This document shows positions 1 to 62,561 of a stretch of 64,000 bases of DNA, in pieces. A program made the translations under genes and the position numbers. The stretch comes from Eledone cirrhosa (Eukaryota): the NCBI GenBank assembly GCA_964016885.1, contig OZ024742.1:319548001-319612000 (forward strand), written 5' to 3'. Under the pieces are notes generated by a model. The model did not search any database, was not told the DNA's origin, and saw only the letters and a program-made list of their open reading frames with translations. Positions within the stretch are counted from its first letter, which is position 1. Every line of letters starts with the position of its first letter.

Positions 1-77
1 TATATTATATTTATATATATATATTATATATATATATATATATTATATATTATATATTTATATATATATATTATATA

Positions 78-108
<31 letters not shown>

Positions 109-117
109 ATTATATAT
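1..117. repeat. (TA)n-rich microsatellite
   Basis: Pure A/T dinucleotide run. Confidence 0.95.
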
Positions 118-451
118 ATCATCATCATCATTTCATTTTACGTCCACTTTTCCCTGCTTCCAAGGGTGGGGCGGGAACTGATTCTGGCTTGATTTCTACA
201 GCTAGATGCCCTTCCTAACACCAACCTCATTTACAGTGAGTGCCGGGTGCTTTTTTTGCTGTGGCACGTCCACTGTACAGTGGAATGATATGGACCCCAG
301 TCCCTATCATCTCATTTCTACAGCTGAGTAAACTGGAGCAACGTGAAATAAAGTGTCTTGCTCAAGGAAACAACACATCACCCAGTCTGAGAATTGAACT
401 CACAACCTTTCGATTGCAAGGCCAATGCTCTAGCCACTGAGCCATGTGCCT
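118..451 (-). mobile_element. tRNA-head SINE with RTE-type 3' tail (family S1)
   Basis: Minus strand begins AGGCACATGGCTCAGTGGCTAGAGC (A box), then GAGTTCAATTC (B box), and ends in (GAT)n. Near-identical to the + copy at 52427-52774. Confidence 0.85.
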
Positions 452-3400
452 GTATATACCTCCATAACATAAGGCATGTGTCAAAACTCAACGATGCTTA
501 AACTTATTTCTATGCAAAGTATATCACGATTTGGCGATATATATTATTCTGAATAATAGTTTGTTTACAAAAATTTATATATATATATTATATATCATCT
601 GAGAAATTTATGTATTGATTTGAGAAAGTGTTTTGAGGAAATACATAAACTGTTAAAAGATGTCTCATAAAATGATTGGTATTTAAGAATAAATAAAACA
701 TGTTGCTGCTCTCGGTTTTATATGTAGATTTAATCACCATTCTGATATCAATCTACCAGGATTACTTCTATGGTTCAAAGTTGTTTGTTTTAAAATCTTC
801 ATATTTAATTTTAAATCATAGGTTTAGGTAAGAACTTTTGTTAAATTATGCACCAAACACCAGCTTAATAATGAAAAAGTTTGTAACATTACTAATTCTC
901 TTTAAATTCTTCATTTGAAAATCATAGGCAGTTTGTTTTATTAGAAGTATGGTAGAAAAAGAGTTAAGTGGAATCATTTTTCAAATTGTATTTAATGCCT
1001 GAACAACTCTGTAAATTCACTAGCTCAATAAAAGTTTGGAATTTTATGTAAGAATGTCTAAATTACGGAAGCTGTACCTAGAAATATCATGAAAGAATAT
1101 GAAATGATGTAGTTTTTGTGCATGTGTCCATCATATCAGAGCCCCGAGCACAGCTTGAAGGGTGGAACTAGTAAAATATCTAATTAGTTTAATATCTTGA
1201 CTGTCCAAGCTATTTTTAAAACAATGAAGACAATGGACACTTAGCTTTTAGGCGGTTGCTTTTATAAACCAATATACAACACCATTTTTTAAAGTAGATT
1301 TGTTTGACCAGTCATTTTCTCTGCAATAGTCTGAAGGATGGATGTTGTAGAATTATAAAAGAATGTAATTAAATATTTTCTACAAGCAAATCTTTTGTAT
1401 AGATTCCCCTTGCTGTTTCTTTCATACACTTTGTTCAAGAGTCCCAAAATAACCATAGCAAATAAGACAGACTACATTATTTGGTCTGATAGAAAATCAT
1501 AATTTGATGGAAGTGAAGCATTTTCCTGTAAATATCGCTACTTTTCATAATGATCAAATTATATGAATAAAACCATTTGCAAGTCTATATTCTTGTGATC
1601 ACCCATATTAACACTTTCTATTCCCTCCCTAAAAGTTTTCTTTGTTACAAGTAATCTCTTTTTCTTTCTCTTTCTCTCATTCATTTTTAGTCTGTTAACT
1701 TTAATAAATGGTTCCAGCAACCATTCATGTACTTAATGGTTTCATTTTTATTTTGTCTACAGTCATTTTAATAGGAATTGAACTTCCATTTTCTTCTCAA
1801 TTTTTAATATTGTTTTACAAGTTTAACATACACGCACGCACATGTAAAAACAAATTCTTCTTCTTCCTATCTGTAAATTAGAAAATCTTATTGTATTTAT
1901 AAAGGGAAAAAAATCTTAAAACCAAACTTTTGTTTTGGAAGAAAAATAAAACTATTTATTTCAACAGTAATGCATTTTATCTGATTTATCTCTGTAAATA
2001 ATTTGATTTTTAATTAGAACATATCACACATATGCATGCACACACGATAAAACGGGTTGCAGTTAAATGTTTCACAGCTTGTTTGCTGTTACTCTAAAAA
2101 AAAAAAAAAAATACCTTTATCTTTCAACCCATAAAGAGAACTTATAGCAATCTGGTATTTATGCCAAACATAAACCAAATATTAACAGAAATGACCAATC
2201 TGCTTAGCAGCATAATTAATTGAATAATGCACAAATAATACTTATGCACAACATATATTAAAATATTTAAGATAGATTTAAACTAGTCATTCCAGTTATG
2301 TTCTGGTTTGTTTTTGACATAAATGGTAATTTGCTACATGTTCTTTATGTAAGTGCAATGAAAAGGTTACTTGTATTTTGATGAACAACCAACTAGCTTG
2401 AAACAATCTTATGTTTTCTGTGAACGAAGATAAAAAATCTGTTTACACTTGTTTTGACAAGGCCTATAAATTAAAATTCTAATTGGGCCTCCATATGTAC
2501 TTAAGTCAAGTCCTTGCAACCTTTCTATCTTGTTTTTTTTGTGTCACTTATGTAAGTTTAGCTGGACTCTTACAAGTTAGCATCTCGTAGGGGGTTTCTA
2601 AGATATTTTAATGATAGGGGCCCCAGTCCTATCATGCTTTTTTGTCTACTCTATAATAACATTAATAGTGTCATAGCTGGCTGAATGGGATGAAAGACAC
2701 TAACTTTCTGCTCAATCCCAATTCATATGCCATTACCAACTCTGTACTTTGTCCCCAAGAAAGACATATAAGAACAGATTACTGCTACTGTATGTTAAGG
2801 ATTTTATTATTTTGCAACAGACGGTTCAAATTTAGTATTCTAAAGAGAGATATGCTTCACAAATTGTCTAGCGCTTTGAACAGTGTTACAAACATTGTGA
2901 AAGTTGATATAATAATTTGAGTGAAGTGAAAGATTAGGGAAAAGGCTTCTTGCTTAGTTTGGAAGGTGTAACACAATTGAGAGAGCAAGAGTATTTTAGA
3001 ATATCTTTATTAGAAAATACATTGTTTTTAATAGTGGTAAAAGAGACAGAGAAGGCTATTAGTTTTAAAATATTGGTGATTGTAGACTTGCTTATTGGTT
3101 TCGTTGATTTTGCTTAGATACAGCAGTTTAGTGTGTGTGCGCGAGTGCATGTATGCGTGTTGGGATTGTCTGGTTCAAGATTGTCTATTACCTTTTGCTC
3201 TATCAAATAAAGAAATTTCTAATGTTGCAGTTGCTTTGCATTTATTTTAGGGTCATAGTTGACTGAAATTTTGTCAATAGATATGACTTTTCTTTGTAAT
3301 ATTTCCAATTTATAAATTCTTTTTTTTTTTTTTTTTTTTTTAATATGTAAAATTCAAATGAAGTTCAATCTAGTTTTTTTCCTTTCCCCCCTTCCAGGCA

Positions 3401-3639
3401 ATATTAAAATTTCTTCTAACATTTCCTGGCTTTATCCCAACACTGCATAATCAATCTGTTGCCTGCACATTCCCCCTTTTCTATTCTATACCTTTCAGGA
3501 ACCATCAAGTAAAAGTGTGTAGTTTTATGGTTAGAGTGTTGGATCATAAGGTCTTGTTTACTTCCTGGATTGGGTAGCTCATTATTTCCTGGAAAAAGAT
3601 ATTTCATTTCATGATGCCCCAGCCCACTTGAAGCTTATA

Positions 3640-3880
3640 AAGCCTGTCTCAAGCCCAGGACCTCTTCAAACTGGAGTTTATCCTGATCTCATAGGCATTA
3701 AGCAGCTTGGAGTACAAGACCTCTTCTTGGACAGAACACCAATCCATCACTTGGTTGGTTAACATTCAGCTACTGCTGCTACTCATTTTCATCTGAGTTG
3801 ATAGGAGCCACATGAAATAAAGTATTTTAGTCAAGAACACAATGTGTCATTCATTCAAGGAATTGAACTCACACCTTAAA
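3640..3880 (-). mobile_element. Degenerate SINE
   Basis: Shares the GGAGCNACATGAAATAAAGT...CAAG...GAATTGAACTCACA block with S1. A similar copy lies at about 34810-35070. Confidence 0.55.
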
Positions 3881-4929
3881 CAGGCTAAAAATAAATAAAA
3901 AGATAAATTAGTCACAAACATCTATTAATTACAAATAATTGTGATAAGATTCTGTGTATCCGTATTTAAAACCAGTTTTTAATAATTCTCACCATTTTGG
4001 TGATTGTTGTCATTGTTATCTTACTATCTCTTTTATGACAGTCTTGGAGTTAGATGAGTCAACACAGACAGTATATATATATCCATCCATGTTAGAGCAA
4101 TATTGTTGATCACTATGGTAATAGAAACATTTTATATAGTTCTGTTACCCCCCCCCCCTCTTGCCAACATAATTTTAAACAAATAAGGTTCTGTTGTTTT
4201 TTGTTGCTGTTTCTCTCTCTTTTAATCTTGGTTGACAAAATGAACGTAATGCTCATCAATTAGACAATGTATATTAGGTTAAAGAGAAAATCCCCCTTCC
4301 TCTCACAAACACAACAGTAGAGATTCTTATTAAATTGTGTATCTTAGCTGAAATATTCATTTTATTATTACATTGTCTCTTTCTATAAAGTTTTATTAGA
4401 ACTCTGTCAGTCTCTTTGATGATATACTAATCTGAATAAACAAATTGCTAAAATGTATACATATAACCCCCCCCCCCCCCCCCACACACACACACCCATC
4501 GTTTTGCGTCTATTTCTTTGGGTTTAAGGAAAAGATGCCAAGTTGAATTTGTTTTCATCAGAAACACATTTGAGAATTGTTTTTATTGCTTCTTAGACAG
4601 ACTTGCTTATCTGAAGCATTAGTATGCATTGTTTAACCTCTCAGAAACCAAAATTGTATTTAATAGAATTTCTACTTGTTTAATATGTATTACTCTAGGT
4701 AATAGAAGCATCTTAGCCAGTGTGGTAATGAAAATGTCAAATCTTGTCATACCCATTACTCAGTGTTTTTACTAGGTGAAAGCATTTGGTCTAGTAGTCA
4801 TGACCCACAATGGATTTGATTTCTGGGACAGGTCACCAATTGTGTTCATGTTGATTTTCATGATATGCCTGAAACCCTAAGAAACCTCTTATAGGAGGAC
4901 AAATAACTAAGCAAAGGTTTGAGTTATAA

Positions 4930-16366: not shown

Positions 16367-16628
16367 TTAACCCTTTAGTGTTCAAACCGCCCGAAACTGG
16401 CCAAAAATAATTCCCCTTCATCTGTTCAAACCGCTCGAAACCGGCTGATAACACCCACACTAAAATATCGTTCTAGAAATAAACAAACCATCATTAAAAT
16501 CTCGCCAATTCGAGATTACTGCGAGATTTGGTCCTTACCACAAAAATTAACACTTAAATAGTGAAACAACTTAAAACAACATGTGTTTTTTTTTTGTTGA
16601 AAGTAGAACAGATTTTTTGTGTATCAAC

Positions 16629-17120
16629 ATGGCTTGTGAAAGTAGCGATACCGACTTTGAAAGTTTTACACACGACGACATTCAGAATGAACAAGAATCA
16701 AAAGATAATATTAGTGATTTATCTTCAAATGAATCAGATGTTTACATTTCTGAAATTTCATCCGACGATGATTGTTGTTTTGAAAGTGAAAACGAAATAG
16801 ATCTCCAGGACGCCATTGAAAATATTACAGCAACGAGGTTGAAAAATACCACACCAATATATGTTCCCGATTTTATTCAAAATACTGGTCCACAACACAC
16901 ATTAGCTCCCGATGCTAAAGCACTGGATTATTCCTTTTTGTTTTTACCACAAACTTTCTTCAAAGTTGTGGCAGAAGAGATTAATCGATATGCCCAACAA
17001 CAGATTTCAAATCGAGGAAAACCCGATCTGTTTGGCGACTGACAGATGCTGCGGAAATGCAAGCATTTTTTACCATAAATATGATGTTCAGTATAAAACA
17101 ATTTCCAAGACTGTGGAAAT
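16629..17120 (+). pseudogene. piggyBac transposase N-terminal remnant (frameshifted, truncated)
   Basis: Acidic N-terminus MACESSDTDFESF.., then DYSFLFLPQTFFKVVAEEINRYAQQ. After a frameshift: TDAAEMQAFFTINMMF. No DDD core. Confidence 0.78.
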
Positions 17121-17372: not shown

Positions 17373-17786
17373 ATTAACTCAAAATAATTGTTTCTACTTT
17401 AGGCACAAGGCCAGCAATACCCAGTTCATTACTGGTACTTTATTTTATCGACCCCGTAAGGATGAAAGGCAAAGTCAACCTCGGCGGGATTTGAACTCAG
17501 ATCGTAAAGGGACGTAACTATGCTGGAAAGCATGGCGTCCGACCCTCTACCGATACCGCCAATCCACCGCATTAACTCAAAATAATTGTTTCTACTTTAG
17601 GCACAAGGCCAGCAATTACCCAGTGCATTACTGGTACTTTATTTTATCGAACCCGTAAGGATGAAAGGCAAAGTCAACCTCGGCGGGATTTGAACTCAGA
17701 TCGTAAAGGGACGTAACTATGCTGGAAAGCATGGCGTCCGACCCTCTACCCATACTGCCAATCCACCGCCATTAACTCAAAATAAT
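17373..17786 (-). mobile_element. Tandem dimer of a tRNA-head SINE (family S2) with a triplicated 16-bp flank
   Basis: Two near-identical ~198-bp units. ATTAACTCAAAATAAT occurs at 17373, 17571 and 17771. Minus-strand B box GAGTTCAAATCC. Confidence 0.88.
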
Positions 17787-18662: not shown

Positions 18663-18674
18663 TGTGTGTGTATG

Positions 18675-19550
18675 CTAGCAGAATGGCCCGGCGTTGCTCG
18701 GGCTTCTAAACATAGATTGGCATGTTTATCCCTCCTTTCTGAAACAGTACAGAGAAGTACGGAATACCTCAGCCTGGGGATGGTGTCTACATTTTGTGCT
18801 TAGGCAAATAATTTTCCATTAAGATTTTTCAAAAGCATGTAATTGTGTTGTTGTTTCTGCTGCTGTTGGTGTGATAACAGCTGTTGGTCGTACTACTAAC
18901 ACAGTCTCGTCCTTCTTCTGCCTCGTCTACCTAAACAATGATTGTAGCACCTCCTTGTACACAATGTTCCTTGTTCTTCCGTGTCGGGCATATGCAAAAA
19001 GAGATTTGTCTTGCTTCCCACTCTTGAGCAGCCAACGTATAGTTGCCCTTGTGAAAAACATGACTCTTCCAAAAGAAGACCAGCAACAGCCAGGGTCTGA
19101 CCCTGGGATTTGTTGATAGACATTGCAAAGCTGACACGGTTCGGCGAATGGTTCGTTGGTTGTCTGTTCAAGTGCTCTTCAGGTGGCAGTACGTTCAGCA
19201 TCTTGCGACCGTCAAATAGCAGATTCCACTGACGATTCGTTTGCCCGTCTTGTTCCTTTTCTTGCCGCTTTTGCAGTATTTCGGCCAATGGAGTATATCT
19301 TCCTTTGAGGCATGACCTAAAAGCAGGACGAAGTACAGTAAGACTAACTAGTAGAGTAAGGAGTAAACTCACCAGTGATACATGTGATTTCCGAATCGTT
19401 GACTATGTAATTGCTGGCCTTGTGCCAAAAGGGACTTTTTGGGTGGCATATCGGCAATGACGATGAGCCGTCTGTGCTTTTGTGAAATAAATACATTTGT
19501 TTATATTTTGTTTTTGTGTATGCAAAAATATCTGTACACGAATATATAAT
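18675..19550 (-). mobile_element. Non-autonomous Helitron (3' end defined, 5' end not located)
   Basis: Minus-strand 3' hairpin GCCCGAGCAACGCCGGGC (18686-18703) followed by terminal CTAG (18675-18678). PIF1 helicase C-terminal motifs are present. Confidence 0.88.
18940..19313 (-). pseudogene. Helitron Rep-helicase remnant: N-terminus fused to PIF1 C-terminus
   Basis: SFAMSINKSQGQTL and CFSQGQLYVGCSRV are PIF1-family motifs V/VI. An upstream frame reads MPQRKIYSIGRNTAKAARKGTRRANES from ATG 19313. Confidence 0.8.
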
Positions 19551-19965
19551 TATATATATATATACCCCCTGACCCCAAGCACACGAACACACACACCCTC
19601 TTACACCACCCACTCTACACACCCTACCACCACTGACCCCCACTCACACCCGCATTCAACCCTTTCTCCACCTCCAGTATACTAACACCCCACTAACACC
19701 CCCTTCACCACACACACACACACACACACCAGTACACTCCACACCCTTCTCTCCCCGCACCACCCACACCCTTTCTCAAACACTCAGACATCCCACTAAC
19801 ACCTCTACTAATACACCCCCCTCACTCCAACTTTCACATCTACCCATCCTCTCCCCTGTCCACCGCACCTCCGCACACACTGACACACTTACTTTCTTCA
19901 CTTACCATTCTACCCTACTGCTGCTATGCCTCTCTGACCACCTCCCCGCACACACAGACACACAA

Positions 19966-20277
19966 CCCTCCTCCTGCCTTGACCTTCTGACCACTTCCTG
20001 TTGCGCGCGCACCCCACATCTCCCCTCTTCCGACCAATCTCTTCCCTCCTCCTGCCTTGACCTTCTGACCACTTCCTGTTGCGCGCGCACCCCACATCTC
20101 CCCTCTTCCGACCAATCTCTTCCCTCCTCCTGCCTTGACCTTCTGACCACTTCCTGTTGCGCGCGCACCCCACATCTCCCCTCTTCCGACCAATCTCTTC
20201 CCTCCTCCTGCCTTGACCTTCTGACCACTTCCTGTTGCGCGCGCACCCCACATCTCCCCTCTTTCGACCAATCTCTT
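19966..20277. repeat. Tandem repeat, 4 x 78 bp, almost perfect
   Basis: Units start at 19966, 20044, 20122 and 20200. Confidence 0.95.
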
Positions 20278-20857
20278 CACGGATTACACATATGTGAACC
20301 TTGATCTCGAGAATCTACCGCATCCCAAGGATTTTACTCAGCATTCCACCACATCTTTTTACGGAATTACCTTTACGACTCACCCCCAGACATACACCCC
20401 AAAAAAATTTTTTTCCCACACGCCACCTACATCCACAACACGCATAAACACTACACACACGTGCGTACCACCACATATTTACACATTCAGCCTCCGGAAT
20501 CCTCTCCCCCCCCCCACCCCTCTATCCACACACGCGCACACACTCCGACCTACACCCCACCCCACACACACCTCTTCCTGAACATGCAACTCCGTTCTCC
20601 CCCCAACCCTTGCTTTCACATACACACACCACCTTCAGTCCTCCCCGCTCAGACACCCCGTCTCTTTCTCCCCACTCCACCCGCCACCACCCCTACACGC
20701 CCCACATCCTTCCACCACCTGTTTTACCCCATTTTAATTTTATTTTGATCATGCCTTTATTTTTAATTTCATTTGCACCGTTTCCTCTCACCCCCTTTTT
20801 GCTATATGTCTCTCCACCACTCCCCTACACACCCTTTGAACTCTCTTCCCACACACT

Positions 20858-20927
20858 TTTCACCTGAAGAAGGGCTTATGCCCGAAACGTCGTTCCCCAC
20901 CACCACCCCACTCTCAAGAACGTGAAA
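20858..20927 (+). ncRNA. Minimal type I hammerhead ribozyme candidate
   Basis: CTGAAGA-A-GGGC-TTAT-GCCC-GAAAC-GTC. Stem III is the palindrome ACGT. TTTCAC can pair with GTGAAA at 20922. Confidence 0.7.
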
Positions 20928-22321
20928 TTAATAAACCTTTGTTCGTACTGCCTCTCTGTTTTGTTCCCGTTCAATTTTTCACTATATATATATATATATA
21001 AAAAAAAATAAAAATAACAGATTAAAGTTTAAGCAAAGAATTGCTGCTTTCACCCTTAACGGGATCTTCTGAAACTAAAAAAATCAATCTGTGAACGCAG
21101 AAGTAAATATTTTGAAAAACGTTGCAACTGAAGGAAAACAGGAAGACAATACTTTGGTATGTGAAGACGTTCCCTGGCAATGGACGGAAAATAGCGAAGA
21201 TAATACATCAGCAATGAGAACAATGTTGAAACAGAGTTAAATATGAAAGATATTTACTGTAGAATTACTATTATATCAGAAAACATTAAATTATACGGAG
21301 TGAATATAAATATATTGATGTCTAAATTGTTAAAGAGATAGGCATATAACATAAACACATACATTTAACTGTGTATGTATACTTCAACTAGTACTTAATC
21401 TCACCTTAAATTCATAATAATGTAATAATCTGTCATTAGTCTCCCACATTTATATATACAGATGGCATATTATACAGATACATTATTAACGCAATATATT
21501 GATTTATTTAATACAGTATATTATCTTATCTAATCTCCTTTAGGTTTGACCTTAATATTTCACTATTTCAATATAATTACTATTGATATTTCATTTTATT
21601 AATTTTCTTAAATATCTCTCACACATATATCTCATTGCCATGTATAAGATAAATATTCATTAGATAAGTATATATGATAAATACATATTAATTCAACCGT
21701 ATATACTTTGCAATAGTATTTAGATATCGCAAAATAAAAAATATAATTTGTAACTTTAACACTGTATAATCCTTTGAATTACTTCTCTTACTTTAATATT
21801 TTTAAGGTGATATTTATTTCTTAATCCTATTCATCATCATCATCATCATATTTATATCCATTTCCCCATGCTGGTATAGTTGGGTGATACTTTTTGAGGC
21901 TGTATTCCACAGCCAGTTGCCCTTCATGATACCAGCAGTTTTTTTTTTGTTTTCTAAAGCAAGGTACTGCTGATCTTTCCATGCCAAACAGCTGAGTTGT
22001 GGCAGTGAAATATAAAACAAATGTCACCGATATTGATGTCAAATGTGACATGAAGACACACACACAGTGTCCGTCTACTAATTTCCCTCACATCTGCATT
22101 GGTTAGCTAGAGGCTATAAGCACCCAAGGTGCCATGTAATGGTATAGAGCTTAAAACCTTGTGAAATAAACTTCTTAACCACCTAAGTTATAACATGCCT
22201 AAGTTACTGAATACTCCCAAATTTTTAATTATTTTAAAAATTAATTTTAAAAAATCATAGGCAATGGATTTCCTTTAAAATATGGTCACAAAAAGGTTAG
22301 GGGTAGATAATAATTTGCATG

Positions 22322-29395: not shown

Positions 29396-30382
29396 CTTTA
29401 TATATATATAAAGGTAAAATGCAGATTAACACAGATAAGCGATACACCTCTGTATGCTGAAATAAGCCTCGTTATAGGATATTCTACCCTGTACTTGGAA
29501 AACCCAAAACGATATATACTCATGCTAGCATGGAAGATGAACGTTAAACGATGATGATGATATATATATAAAATAGTGCTAGTGCCTCAATAAATGCTCC
29601 TATTATGCTCTGTAAAGTGAACAAGACGTGTTTCCTTCAGCCTGTCTTGTCTCGAACTATAACTCATCCACCTTATGGCACCTTATAATGATGGTGATGA
29701 GGATATATATATTTATTGTGAGTTCATTCTGTAAGAAATTGTTTAATTATAGAGAATGGCCTGTCCATTCAAAATGACTTGGGAATTCATTGATAAATTT
29801 CCTACCGAAAGACTTTGAACTTTGTATTTAATAGTAAAATATTCCACTTTGATCTTCGCCAAAAGGCAAATAATTAATAAATGTGATTGTGTACGTTGCT
29901 TGCTAAAAATGGTGGGTCACAACGCTTTATATAAGTACTTAGACACTTCTGCTGGCAAAAATGACAGCTTTTAAACTTATATATAACATGTTTTTGATTG
30001 GTTCACTGAAAGGTTGGCACACCGATCTAAAATGAGGAGGCATCAGTTTAATTGTTGTTTACTTTAAGTATGGAAAGATATTGAAGTGATAGCTGAGATG
30101 TAAATAATTTCATTATTGAATACTTTTGTTCTGTCAATGCAAACATATATTTTGATAGTGATGAGTATCTTTGAAAAGCAGGTTCGTTTTTAAGTTTATG
30201 TGATGTCAATAATTTGGTCAAGCTGTTGTGTTTTGTTTGTTTTATCTGGTTTGTATAATATCATTTTCTTTATAACCAAAAAACTACATTTTATTCTTAA
30301 TTTTCTTAAGAACTAATTTGAAATAATTTTAATATTGATAGCGTGATCTTAATTTCTTTTCTCTTTTCTTTTTCCTTTCAAG

Positions 30383-30695
30383 GATGAGGTCGTTGTTGAG
30401 AGCACAGAGTCGTCATCGCCGGTGGTACAGCAGTCAGTGCCGGCATCATCATCATCTACATCATCATCTACATCGTCATCATCATTATCATCATCATCAT
30501 CATCATCATTATCACCTCCAACACCACCACCACCACCACAACAACAGCAGACAAACCCTACAGTTGATTGTAGGGAACTGCATGTGGATGAGGTAGCATT
30601 GCTGTCTTCTGGTGCTGCCATCATTAAAGATGGTGAGACTCCAGAAATGGCACTGCTGAAGGCAGCTATTGGGAAGGACAAGAAGAAAGACAAAG
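30383..30695 (+). CDS. Internal coding exon A of an unidentified host gene (Ser/Pro/Gln-rich), phase 0 to phase 1
   Basis: Long polypyrimidine tract with TTCAAG| acceptor. Open frame DEVVVESTESSSPVVQQSVPASSS..VDCRELHVDEVALLSSGAAIIKDGETPEMALLKAAIGKDKKKDK. Donor AAG|GTGATT. GC-richer than its flanks. Confidence 0.75.
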
Positions 30696-30738
30696 GTGAT
30701 TATTATTATTATTATTATTATCATTAATAAAGAAATCA

Positions 30739-44003: not shown

Positions 44004-44306
44004 ATGGAGGTAAATTTACCTTTGAAAAGTTACCACGAGGTAACCCTCCCCCAACCTCAGATAATATTCTTGGAAAATATAACAATATTAGCATCTTTTG
44101 TTTTTCCTTAGCTTTTGCCCCTTTGACAGATTTTTCTTATGTCAGAAAAAGGTTTGACAAATCAGGTTGTCACATGTTGACATTTCAAGATGATATATTT
44201 TTCTGAGAACATTTAATCCATGTTTCCATAGATTATCAGCTTCCAGATTTTATCAAAAGACGGTCACCCATTGTTGTTGTTTGTTTTTGTTTTTTTCTTC
44301 TTACAG

Positions 44307-44684
44307 TATGTGGAGGAGGTGGAGGTGGCGGGGGAGAGGGAGGAGAAAGTTTAGCCAGTACTGATAGTCAATCTCAGGAAGTCCTAGTCCAGCAGCTGCC
44401 TGTGACCACGTCTCCCGTTTTGCAGCAGTCGAATGGGGAACAGCCGGTTCAGGTGGCTGGTACTGAATCCAAAGATGTCGTTTCCTTGGGTCCAGCCAGC
44501 GTGGTTACTACCATGTCCAACGTGGAAACCTCTAGCTCGATCTCCACAGTTCCCAGAACTTTACCAGCCAGCACAGACAGAGGTGATACTGTGAAGGAAG
44601 CAGCAATTCCAATAACAAGCACCCCACCTGTGTCAGACATCCCTGGCAGACGAAATATCAGGCAGGCTTTGCGACCTAAGCGAT
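44307..44684 (+). CDS. Internal coding exon B of the same host gene (Gly/Ser/Thr/Pro-rich), phase 1 to phase 1
   Basis: Polypyrimidine tract with TTACAG| acceptor. Frame CGGGGGGGGEGGESLASTDSQSQEVLVQQLPVTT...IPGRRNIRQALRPKR. Donor |GTAAAT. Phase matches the end of exon A. Confidence 0.75.
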
Positions 44685-44792
44685 GTAAATATTCCAATTA
44701 TTTTCCATTTTTTTCTTTGATCTTTTTGTGGCTATAAAACAGAACCAGCAGCCTCAGTCTTTACGCGTTTGTTTATCTTTTCCCTCCCCAGA

Positions 44793-53926: not shown

Positions 53927-53978
<52 letters not shown>

Positions 53979-53979
53979 G

Positions 53980-54060
<81 letters not shown>

Positions 54061-54075
54061 GTATATATATATATG

Positions 54076-54149
<74 letters not shown>

Positions 54150-54151
<2 letters not shown>

Positions 54152-57100
54152 AAACTTCAGAGTTGGTACCATAAATGTAGGCACCCTAAAGGGTCGCGCT
54201 AACGAGGTTGTAGAAATGCTTGAACGTAAGGAGGTCGATGTTTGTTGTATTCAAGAGACCAGGTGGAGGGGTGGGTCTGCTAGATTCATTGGGGGTAAAC
54301 GATGTTATAAGCTTTTCTGGGTGGGAAACGACGATGGGCTGGGTGGAGTAGGAATCATGGTAGCAGAAAAGTGGGCAGATAAGATAATAGACGTAAATAG
54401 AGTGAACGACAGAATAATTAAAATACGACTTGTCCTCAATAGAACTACGGTGACAGTAATATCTGCGTACGCACCCCAATCCAGCCTGCCCGGCACTATA
54501 AAAGACAGATTCTATGAGACACTGTTGCTAACTACCTCCCAAATATCTGACAGTGACTATATAATTATTGCAGGCGACCTAAATGGTCACGTTGGACAAC
54601 ATTGTGACGGCTACGACGAAATCCATGGAGGCTATGGGTTTGGTACTAGAAATGAGGAAGGCTCCAGAATCCTGGAATTCTGTGATGCAAATAACCTAAC
54701 TATCTGTAACACTAACTTCAAAAAACGTGACAATCACCTGATCACCTATAGATCCGGGGAACACACAAGCCAGGTAGATTATATCCTTACCAGAAGACGT
54801 GACAGAGTGTCTGTTGTAAACACTAAATCCCTCCCCCATGAAGAATGCACCTCCCAACATAGACTGATAATTAGTGACCTCATAGTCAGGACGAGACGTA
54901 CTCGACAGCAGAAGAGGACTATCCTCAGGAGAAAAATATGGAAGCTAAAGGACCCCACAGCCAGAAATAAATTTCAAAGCATATTACTTGATGCTTTCGA
55001 CAGTAAGGAAGAACATTTAGAGTCGGACAATATAGAGGGACAGTGGGAATTTCTGAAAGCAAACCTGCTGTTGGCGACAGACGAAGTCTGTGGCTGGAGC
55101 AGGCCTGTAGGCAGGAGGAGAGTAACATGCTGGTGGAACAGTAAGGTGGAGGAGTCAATTAAGGCCAAAAAGCAGGCTTGGAAAGTATGGCGGGATGGGG
55201 GAAGTAGAGTAGACTATCAAGTGGCCAGGAGGGAAGCTAGGAGAGAAGTGTACTTAGCAAGAAGGGAAGCTGAGGAAAGAAAGTTCAAGCATGTTCTACA
55301 ACGCGATTACCAAAAACGTGAGGTGTTCAGGATTGCTAGGCAATGCGTCAAGGAAAACCGTGATATTGTCGGGGAGAAGTGTGTACTTAACGATGATGGC
55401 ATACTTGCCATCACCGACACTGATAAGAAGGTAGCTTGGAAGTGTCACTATGAAAGGCTACTAAATGAGGAGAATAAATGGGAGAAAGACAGTCTCCCCC
55501 ATATCGACCCAATAGAGGGACCAGCAGTGTTAGTCGAGGGGAGTATAATAAGTAAGGCAATCAAGGATTATGAAGACGGGTAAGGCGGCTGGGCCTTCGG
55601 AAATAGTTGCTGAGATGCTGAGGGCATCTGGCACGGTGGGACACACCATGGTCACCCGCATAGTTAACCAAGTCGTACAGAATGGGGTTGTTCCGAAGGA
55701 CTGGCATAGCAGCATCATCGTTAACTGTTATAAGGGTAAAGGGGACGCCCTAGATAGGAGTAACTATAGAGGCATTAAATTAATCGACCAGGTCATGAAG
55801 GTCACGGTTAAAAGTAATAGCGCAACGAATCAGAGAGAGAATTGACCTAGATGAAATGCAGTTCGGGTTTGTGTCAGGCAAAAGTACCACAGACGCTCTT
55901 TTCATAGTACGACAACTACAGGAGAAGTACCTAGCTAAAGGTAAACCCCTCTACTTAGCTTTTGTCGACTTGGAGAAAGCCTTCGACAGAGTCCCCCGCT
56001 CCATTATCTGGTGGGCTCTTAGAAAACTAGGTGTTGACGAATGGCTTGTGAGAGCTATACAAGCCATGTATAAAGAAACAGTCAGCAAGGTTAGAATTAA
56101 CAACGAATATAGTGAAGAGTTTAGCGTAAAAGTTGGCGTCCATCAGGGCTCTGTTCTCAGCCCCCTACTATTTATTATTGCCCTTCAGGCTATAACAGAG
56201 GAGTTCAAGACAGGCTGCCCATGGGAACTCCTATACGCAGACGACCTGACACTCATAGCGGAATCAATGGCCGAGCTAGAGAAGAAATTCCAAACATGGA
56301 AGCACGGCCTAGAGTCAAAAGGACTTAAAATTAACCTGGCTAAGACCAAAGTTCTAGTTTGTAGGAAAGAAAACCAGGCGGCAGTCCCTTCTGGGAAATG
56401 GTCGTGCTCGGTGTGTAGGAAAGGCGTAGGTAGAAACTCCATTTTATGTCCTAAATGCAAAGTATGGGTGCATAAAAGATGTAGTGGGATCACAGGTAAG
56501 CTAACTAAGAACATAGATTTTACATGTGGCCGGTGTTCTGGTGCAATAAGTAGCAGCAAGTGCCCACAAAATACTAGCTCTTTCAATTGCGCAGAGGGTT
56601 CTATAGAAATAGTGGACAGCTTCCGTTACCTGGGCGATAAAATCAGCAGTGGGGGAGGGTGCTCTGAAAGTACTGTAGCTAGAGTCAGAACTGGTTGGAA
56701 AAAGTTCAGAGAGCTTATACCACTATTAGCTGCTAAAGGGTTCTCCCTAAAAATGAAAGGCAGGTTGTACGATGCCTGCATACGAACAGCAATGTTGCAT
56801 GGCAGTGAGACCTGGGCATTGTGTGCAGCGGATATACGCAGACTAGAGAGGAACGAAGCTTGCATGCTCTGCTGGATGTGTAACAGTAATATACGTGAAC
56901 GGCAAAGCATAAACGAACTAAGGAAAAAATTAGAGATAAGAGGGATCAGATGTTGTTTACTCGAGAGAAGGCTACGTTGGTATGGACACGTGATGCGCAT
57001 GAAAGTCGATAGCTGTATAACAAAGTGCAGGGCAATAAAGATAGACGGTAGTCATGGAATAGGCAGACCTAGAAAAACCTGGGACGAGCTGATAAACTCC

Positions 57101-57190
57101 GACATCACACACTTACACCTCTCCAAGACAATGTCACTGGACCGAGACCTTTGGCGGTACTCAGTAACAGAGAAGACCCGCCTTACCTAA
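54150..57190 (+). pseudogene. APE endonuclease-reverse transcriptase ORF, split into 54150-55583, 55570-55845 and 55856-57190
   Basis: Comparison with copy 2 shows single-base insertions near 55568 and 55808. The start codon is lost into (TA)n. Confidence 0.92.
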
Positions 57191-57576
57191 ATATATAGTA
57201 AAACCTACTCCAGCCAGTAGGCATCTCTAACAAAATACACCCCGTCCCACCACCACCATCCCATCCACACCGCCCCCTTCTATGTAAAGTTATGTTGGTG
57301 CCACACCATCCAGGCCGAAACAAATGAGATCGTGTAGGTGTCACGACAAAAAACACACAGTCCACGCTGTAATGTGGCCGTGTAGGCAACACGGTAAAAA
57401 CCTCCCAGACCCACACTGTAAATGTGGTTGGTGTTAGAAAGGGCATCCAACTGTAGAAAACCTGCCAGACAGTCCTATGCGAGCAAGACAATCACTCTTG
57501 CCTCAAGTGGGAATACCCCCGTCCAAACCCATGCAAGCGTGGAACACGGACGTTAAACGTTGATGATGATGATGAT
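54150..57576 (+). mobile_element. RTE LINE copy 1, near full length, two +1 frameshifts
   Basis: APE domain (GTINVGT, CIQET, AGDLNGH, SQVDY, SQHR), RT (YADD), 3' UTR with subrepeats and a (GAT)n tail. Confidence 0.95.
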
Positions 57577-57612
57577 ATATATGTATATATGTATATGTAT
57601 ATATATATGTAT

Positions 57613-57816
57613 ATCATCATCATTTTCATTTCATTTAACGTCCACTTTTTCCCTGCTTGCAAGGGTGGGACGGGAACTGATTCTGGCTTGATCCTAACAC
57701 CAACCTCATTTACAGTGAGTGCTGGGTGCTTTTTTGCCGTGGCACCTCCACGACCACTTTGCAGTGGAATGATAGGGACCCCAGTCCCTATCATCTCATT
57801 TCTACAGATGAGTAAA
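57613..57816 (-). mobile_element. 3' half of SINE S1 between the two LINEs
   Basis: Matches 118-331; truncated into (TA)n. Confidence 0.88.
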
Positions 57817-57840
57817 TATATATATGTATATATATATATA

Positions 57841-62561
<4,721 letters not shown>

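Follow-up and report, generated by a model that had tools for sequence, protein, structure and literature searches.

The C-rich island described here represents the 3' terminus of a Penelope-like retrotransposon (PLE) of 4.8 kb, apparently of the Neptune type, and likely arose when a (TA)n tract was nicked and reverse transcriptase (RT) stopped about 1.25 kb into the copy; we assign this reading a probability of roughly 0.9. The island lies in a 64,000-nucleotide stretch of the Eledone cirrhosa genome (contig OZ024742.1), hereafter the window, and its features are listed in Table 1. As the first-pass annotation had noted, it is strand-asymmetric and sits between (TA)n tracts: the plus strand contains 45% C and 8% G, and the GC skew in 20001-21000 is -0.63. 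The island is 1.4 kb long, has neither an ORF nor an upstream repeat, and gave no Pfam match in four of its frames. The family unit is 4818 nt, with the ORF stop at unit position 3209, and the window copy begins at unit position 3573; i.e., the island is the last ~1,245 nt of the 1,609-nt 3' UTR/pseudo-LTR (pLTR) together with a 78-bp expansion. Four 78-bp units are found in the window copy versus one in 20 of 29 and none in 9 of 29 other close copies, and the three extra units are private to this insertion among the close copies. The match to the tandem junction of a longer copy (L136) extends to 20986. The AATAAA reported near the 3' end is present, and it was also found in 29/30 close copies, 21/30 position-sampled copies, and 1/30 sister-family loci; an A8 run occurs near the end of one of the 30 close copies, which otherwise have no poly(A) tail. 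The window copy was likely dead on arrival.

Table 1. Features of the island and its surroundings in the window.
Feature	Position	Strand	Basis
Host repeat, left part	18671..19564	-	Helitron-like 3' hairpin and CTAG (18675-18703); helicase C-terminal fragment (18896-19402)
5' part of (TA)n target	19551..19564	.	Sequence; empty sites in other host-repeat copies
5'-truncated Penelope-like element copy, probably Neptune-type	19565..20982	+	~90% alignment to L136 4199-5445
78-bp unit, four copies	19966..20278	+	TRF, 99% matches
5' arm of hammerhead stem I	20857..20863	+	Sequence; varies between subfamilies
Minimal type I hammerhead	20864..20891	+	Core search; genome matches versus control
3' arm of stem I (2 bp, catalytic register)	20892..20893	+	Same register gives 3-4 bp in sister families
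Downstream motif AGCGT(G/T)AA	20919..20927	+	134/139 hammerheads from five groups, one mismatch allowed
AATAAA	20930..20935	+	Candidate poly(A) signal
3' (TA)n target	20983..21000	.	Initial four bases shared with the tandem junction of the element itself
Host repeat, right part	20983..21227	-	Contiguous with left part across (TA)n in 12/19 other copies

When the last 166 nt were used as a query, 1,637 candidates were found in the 3.0-Gb genome, and all 40 that were scored are at least 98% identical to the query. The 30 closest copies share one 3' end, located 89-96 nt past the GUC and followed by (TA)n, and their 5' ends are scattered from unit position 1 to 4607 of 4818 (15 of them, picked for a far-upstream match, were extended to 8 kb, and the other 15 were viewed for 1.5 kb). 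A fixed 3' end with variable 5' truncation, together with a hammerhead motif in the pLTR, is the arrangement of endonuclease-containing (EN+) PLEs. (TA)3 or longer follows 30 of 30 close copies and 28 of 30 position-sampled hammerheads, compared with a background of 0.20, and such a microsatellite insertion bias is a mark of Neptune elements; TA repeats were also found in the left flank of 22 of the 28 close copies in which that flank is visible. In contigs from three runs of one sample, loose TA ends occur at the element 3' end; this may be the source sample itself, and we do not count it as support.

The longer copies recovered by this search, which the first-pass annotation had proposed, bear out the Penelope-like nature of the island. 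They encode PLE-type RT motifs, an RT thumb, the linker CSRPRCNTC (CX4CxxC) followed by VYG...YVG, and a GIY-YIG domain with a CxxC in its core (VYGLRCTECSATYVG), i.e., a single ORF with a C-terminal GIY-YIG that is broken by frameshifts and stops and is absent from the window copy. Pfam gave RVT_1 (E 1.7e-5) and GIY-YIG (E 0.004), both under the curated cut-off, and nothing in three frame-shifted ORF pieces. A protein database search returned 135 proteins at E <= 1e-20, the best with 55-61% identity, which carry RT and often GIY-YIG Pfam marks; those that are named come from sea anemone, tick, and springtail. The linker pattern is present in 114 of the 120 matched proteins listed, and the endonuclease was aligned to one database protein at E 7e-54. 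Compared by eye with the rows of Fig. S2 in the supplement of PMC8557442, the linker spacing and RT motif 4 match Neptune and not Nematis, Poseidon, or Hydra; a CX2-5CxxC linker between RT and EN and a CxxC within the GIY-YIG core, which that source gives for Neptune, are also found. The placement in the Neptune clade thus comes from motifs rather than from a reference tree, and we regard it as probable. The locus L035 (oriented 1-4500) additionally contains, beside a C-rich copy and on the minus strand relative to it, a Penelope-type RT that is unrelated to it, richer in AT, and carries an insert rich in Asn and Thr.

The hammerhead CTGAAGAAGGGCTTATGCCCGAAACGTC is the sole match to the core in the window, and none was expected in 100 shuffles. 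It consists of CUGAAGA, an extra A, a 4-bp stem II, GAAA, and a palindromic ACGU, and the predicted cut site is after C20891. The core pattern has 5,101 matches in the genome, a count that takes in sister families, versus 4 for the reversed control, and a change of G-C to A-U in stem II gives 203 matches versus 0. A Penelope-type minimal hammerhead near the 3' end, as first described from the window alone, is thus confirmed and conserved among copies. Rfam reported no hammerhead match in the region; its three weak miRNA matches are noise. Folded as a single strand, the motif region has an unremarkable z-score of -1.1. In the dimer calculations, the energy of the catalytic fold exceeds the predicted minimum by 10-32 kcal/mol in all subfamilies, which therefore cannot be ranked by the energy model. 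Pairing of the ACGU palindrome with a downstream GCGU was considered and rejected; its probability is at most 0.02 in all copies folded, and it would place a G at position 17.

L158-L185 belong to a second hammerhead family, which is less C-rich, has a stem I of 4 bp, and carries an A-U pair in stem II; its 3' ends often enter (CA)n or (TACA)n, and also (TA)n, and PLE coding sequence lies upstream in two of these loci. Coding sequence was found within 1.5 kb upstream of 3 of 30 sister-family hammerheads, and most of these are therefore tied to PLEs by the 3' motif alone. Small elements embedded in (TA)n occur near many copies (L038, oriented 2780-2940; L023; L024; L042, oriented 4500-4690), among them several that contain long palindromes and one in which CTGACGAG lies within a long inverted repeat; these are possibly further hammerhead families.

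In the catalytic register, stem I of the window copy has two pairs next to the GUC (C20863-G20892 and A20862-T20893), as had been stated in the first-pass annotation. The distal complementarity that it proposed, between TTTCAC (20858-20863) and GTGAAA (20922-20927), is also present. The inserted hairpin CGTTC (20891-20895)/GAACG (20918-20922) exists in the sequence, but it shares G20922 with the distal arm and its outer pair uses the cleavage-site C, so that at most four of its pairs can coexist with the distal stem. Moreover, it takes a private substitution of the window copy, the G-to-A change at 20920 in the downstream motif, to make the hairpin perfect; GAGCG is found instead of GAACG in 28 of the 28 other close copies listed, from which L014 is left out, as its core did not match.

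Stem I was compared among 139 hammerheads of five groups, all from the E. cirrhosa genome and labeled by a rough rule under which a few rows are mis-sorted. Next to the cut, stem I measures 2 bp in 50/58 copies of the window's subfamily, 4 bp in 12/21 and 3-4 bp in 6/11 copies of the sister groups, and 0-1 bp in 30/30 copies of an older subfamily. The first pair is U-A or C-G and the second is U-A in the sister groups, versus C-G and A-U, respectively, in the window's subfamily, and different base pairs at the same positions support the proximal register. The distal pairing extends over six contiguous bp in 51/58 copies of the window's subfamily and 4 bp in 17/19 copies of a derived group, and has at most one contiguous pair in 27/28 older-subfamily and in 9/9 and 20/20 sister-family copies. 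The downstream AGCGT(G/T)AA is kept whatever the 5' arm reads and can pair with it in the window's subfamily only, and was therefore probably kept for another reason than pairing. Followed by TAATA, it is located 11-32 nt past the cut in all groups compared (20919-20935 in the window), and AGCGT(G/T)AA/TAATA is possibly a promoter, protein-binding, or 3'-end signal.

In a midpoint-rooted tree of 37 natural copies (40 were chosen and 3 were dropped as too short), which has some long branches, the 4-bp group falls outside, the 0-1-bp group comes next, and all copies with a UCAC arm form one clade (100/98). The distal pairing had a single origin, out of the catalytic register, and was eroded later. 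Folding predicts the hairpin with a probability of 0.46 in the window copy and 0.09 in a typical one, against 0 in the other subfamilies folded; for the distal pairing, the probability is 0.53 in both the window copy and a typical sister copy, 0.05-0.96 across related young subfamilies, and no more than 0.01 in the older groups (the row S2 L157, a neighboring copy of another subfamily, is left out). The long distal helix in most of the window's subfamily, these probabilities, and the coincidence of the UCAC arm with one supported clade would all suit a selected switch, in which UUUCAC:GUGAAA, with or without the hairpin, keeps the hammerhead off until a partner or an element protein refolds it. 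We consider such a switch unlikely: there is no compensatory change, as the 5' arm varies opposite an unchanging distal arm; the pairing is nearly absent from the older subfamily and sister families; the clade derived from the window's subfamily has returned to 4 bp; the U-to-A change behind this return also brings back proximal pair number two; and the perfect hairpin is private. For the same reasons, namely the private hairpin and the distal arm without covariation, the originally suggested branched stem I is not supported as a conserved gate. Because the distal pairing takes C20863 from G20892, it could only inhibit; folding predicts it as a real possible fold of the young clade, without covariation, and it is possibly an inhibitory fold limited to that lineage.

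The tandem layout of the family bears on what the hammerhead does. Seven of 20 long copies are bounded by two hammerheads, 4,714-4,861 nt apart. There are 124 matches to the first bases of the unit, of which 100 were examined (several are local duplicates), and a copy of the 3' end, from ~20 nt to >700 nt in length, lies upstream of 93 of these 100 unit starts; one of the starts scored without it, L269, has it when inspected by eye. PLEs are described as having such a partial-tandem layout with pLTRs (PMC4209133, PMC8557442). In 30 junctions picked by likeness to one such junction, the sequence reads TATA-CAATAC in 21 and TATATA-TAATAC in 9; since TATA or TATATA is present in all 30, the RNA likely carries a short UA run exactly at the common end of the copies.

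Relative to the cut, the 100 junction starts number 7 in the bin from -7 to +7 and 4, 7, 6, and 5 in the next 15-nt bins. A single start coincides with the cut, and 63 are located upstream of it by more than 7 nt; i.e., there is no pile-up of 5' ends at the cut site in the 100 tandem junctions, but a smooth decay. A role proposed for the hammerhead in the literature is to cut tandem transcripts into linear RNAs of unit length, which would serve as insertion templates (PMC4209133, in the sections available), and 5 of the 30 junctions of our first set indeed began -4 to +15 nt from the cut. This apparent cleavage footprint was rejected on the larger set, however, and linear cut RNAs are not the main template, as there is no excess at the cut and 63 starts are upstream; the subfamily with 0-1 bp in stem I (30/30 copies) also spread. 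We regard linear templates as refuted and their use as very improbable, and cutting followed by re-ligation into circles is possible. The RNA that served as template had likely stayed uncut or been re-ligated, or else copying jumped from one template to another. Uncut tandem RNA agrees with the finding that hammerhead mutants of Poseidon from Anolis carolinensis still insert in vitro, uncut RNA being the main template there (PMC11167929), and re-ligated circles agree with the published circle model.

The first-pass annotation had taken the island for a non-autonomous element. A dedicated unit of ~1.4 kb, PLE or retrozyme, mobilized in trans, would fit the non-coding window copy, the 16 of 30 close copies that begin inside the 3' UTR, and the one internally deleted derivative known; nevertheless, we hold it to be largely refuted and very improbable. 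The 5' ends are scattered, the nearest other start being 13 nt from that of the window copy; the same 3' sequence runs on into the ORF for RT and GIY-YIG in 13-14 of the 30 copies (one is borderline); and there is one hammerhead per 4.8-kb unit rather than short tandem monomers. A fixed non-coding tandem monomer, as in non-LTR retrozymes or non-autonomous PLEs, was accordingly rejected for the family. The island is instead a 5'-truncated copy of an element that is autonomous in design, of which there is no working master among the 20 long copies, none having an unbroken ORF (longest 557 aa). The deleted derivative, L011 (G000:C3:158566476-158569641, oriented 340-1700), has lost the endonuclease, its ORF passing from the zinc linker straight to the 3' UTR at a short shared C-rich stretch. 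Two near-identical insertions, L138/L139 (G000:C2:338242200-338255000), are separated by 5,816 nt, share their 5' flank, and are a local duplication, not an element tandem.

The flanks of the island, 18671-19564 and 20983-21227, are the two halves of one abundant repeat with 3,310 candidates, which we take to be Helitron-derived from its terminal hairpin with CTAG and its helicase fragment; Pfam gave no match for this fragment. The island was first thought to adjoin a Helitron remnant, but the empty sites place it inside the repeat. Since 12 of 19 other repeat copies join the halves across a short (TA)n without the island, and relatives of the island occur in unrelated flanks, its being internal sequence of the repeat, as the repeat on both sides might suggest and as had been named as a possible refutation, is itself refuted and has next to no probability. 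The same (TA)n of this repeat holds other insertions (the 3' flank of L018, L123, L194, and L195), with Penelope ends in the opposite orientation in L123 and L194, and is a recurrent landing site.

For the truncated Neptune-type end, we propose the following course. The element's own endonuclease would nick the (TA)n tract, and the nicked strand would anneal to UAUA(UA), about 91 nt downstream of the hammerhead, where copying would be primed; priming at this position would explain the fixed 3' end. In the window, RT would then have stopped after about 1.25 kb. As copying runs past the unit start and the cut site, the template would be longer than one unit, i.e., an uncut tandem transcript, a re-ligated circle, or the product of a template jump. 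To judge from published work, cleavage by the hammerhead would require a dimer and probably also protein help, and with stem I down to 0-2 bp, cutting is likely weak and possibly dispensable in the window's lineage. Annealing of the UA run to nicked (TA)n is the simplest reading of the junction sequences, and TATA at the junction could instead be a relic of an old target; this annealing step was absent from the PLE literature searched. A more elaborate scenario, which seems doubtful to us, is that stem I shrank from 4 to 0-1 bp with the core intact, that in the later, very successful clade out-of-register pairing with the conserved downstream motif keeps the ribozyme off until an element protein or partner RNA frees it, and that the cut RNA becomes a 4.8-kb circle copied from UAUA annealed to (TA)n.

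Other repeats and frames were observed elsewhere in the window. Two nested or tandem RTE-like LINE copies are located at 53928-60762 (+), their endonuclease and RT frames measuring 551, 463, and 798 aa, and an unbroken 357-aa Tc1/mariner-like transposase frame lies between (TA)n tracts at 61364-62437 (+). A 199-bp unit at 17373-17786 (2.1 copies, 97%) is presumably SINE-like, and an acidic 155-aa frame at 16575-17042 (+) resembles what we take to be the start of a piggyBac-like transposase. The GC-richer stretches 30349-30727 and 44207-44737 contain related Ser/Pro/Gln-rich frames and are possibly paralogous exons of a host gene.

The island is of a known kind, a 5'-truncated Neptune-type PLE end with a known minimal hammerhead, real but ordinary, and its annotation is routine, as it is one of thousands of Penelope ends in the genome. 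The C-rich family was absent from the literature searched and is possibly already catalogued in Repbase or Dfam. The family is nonetheless material for asking whether the mobility of a PLE depends on cutting by its hammerhead: stem I lengths of 4, 0-1, and 2 bp form a natural series on one core in one genome, and the junctions indicate that copying passes the cut site unhindered. The presence of UAUA at the fixed 3' end hints that target annealing is part of the (TA)n preference, unlike in the one PLE studied in vitro. If the scenario of an intact core, a shrinking stem I, and a gate were true, the family would be a natural experiment on why Penelope elements keep the hammerhead.

In the available parts of the descriptions of known systems, several likenesses and differences stand out. 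Poseidon (PMC11167929) shares the tandem organization and AT-rich targets, and its copying begins inside the RNA ~85-92 nt past the cut, a distance that corresponds to 91 nt here; uncut RNA, its main template, likewise fits the junctions here. It belongs to a different clade, however; its start site in vitro is not homologous to the cut DNA, whereas the start site here reads UAUA; its hammerhead overlaps the start codon, whereas the candidate ATG here is ~420 nt into the unit; its copies have an optional tail, whereas no such tail of 30-40 nt was found in the 30 closest copies inspected. Compared with other Neptune-clade EN+ elements (PMC8557442), the sense strand is strongly C-rich (48% C over the coding part) and the 3' UTR is 1.6 kb, neither of which may be unusual for the clade. 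Animal non-LTR retrozymes (bioRxiv 10.64898/2026.07.22.740005) are likewise non-coding, with a type I hammerhead and kinship to PLE pLTRs, but they are short tandem monomers with a hammerhead each, whereas the island is the single truncated end of a coding element. With the minimal PLE hammerheads of PMC4209133, the motif shares the CUGANGA core, the extra base between A9 and 10.1, the G10.1-C11.1 pair, and the palindromic 15.2-16.2 without loop 3, and in metazoans these are mostly single motifs in truncated copies, as here. The helix I of ~4-5 bp beside the cut that is found in the Schistosoma motifs is replaced by 2 bp in the window's subfamily, for which the Drosophila virilis Penelope with 2 bp is a precedent, and by 0-1 bp in the older subfamily; similar stem I variants may be present among the supplementary hammerhead drawings of that paper.
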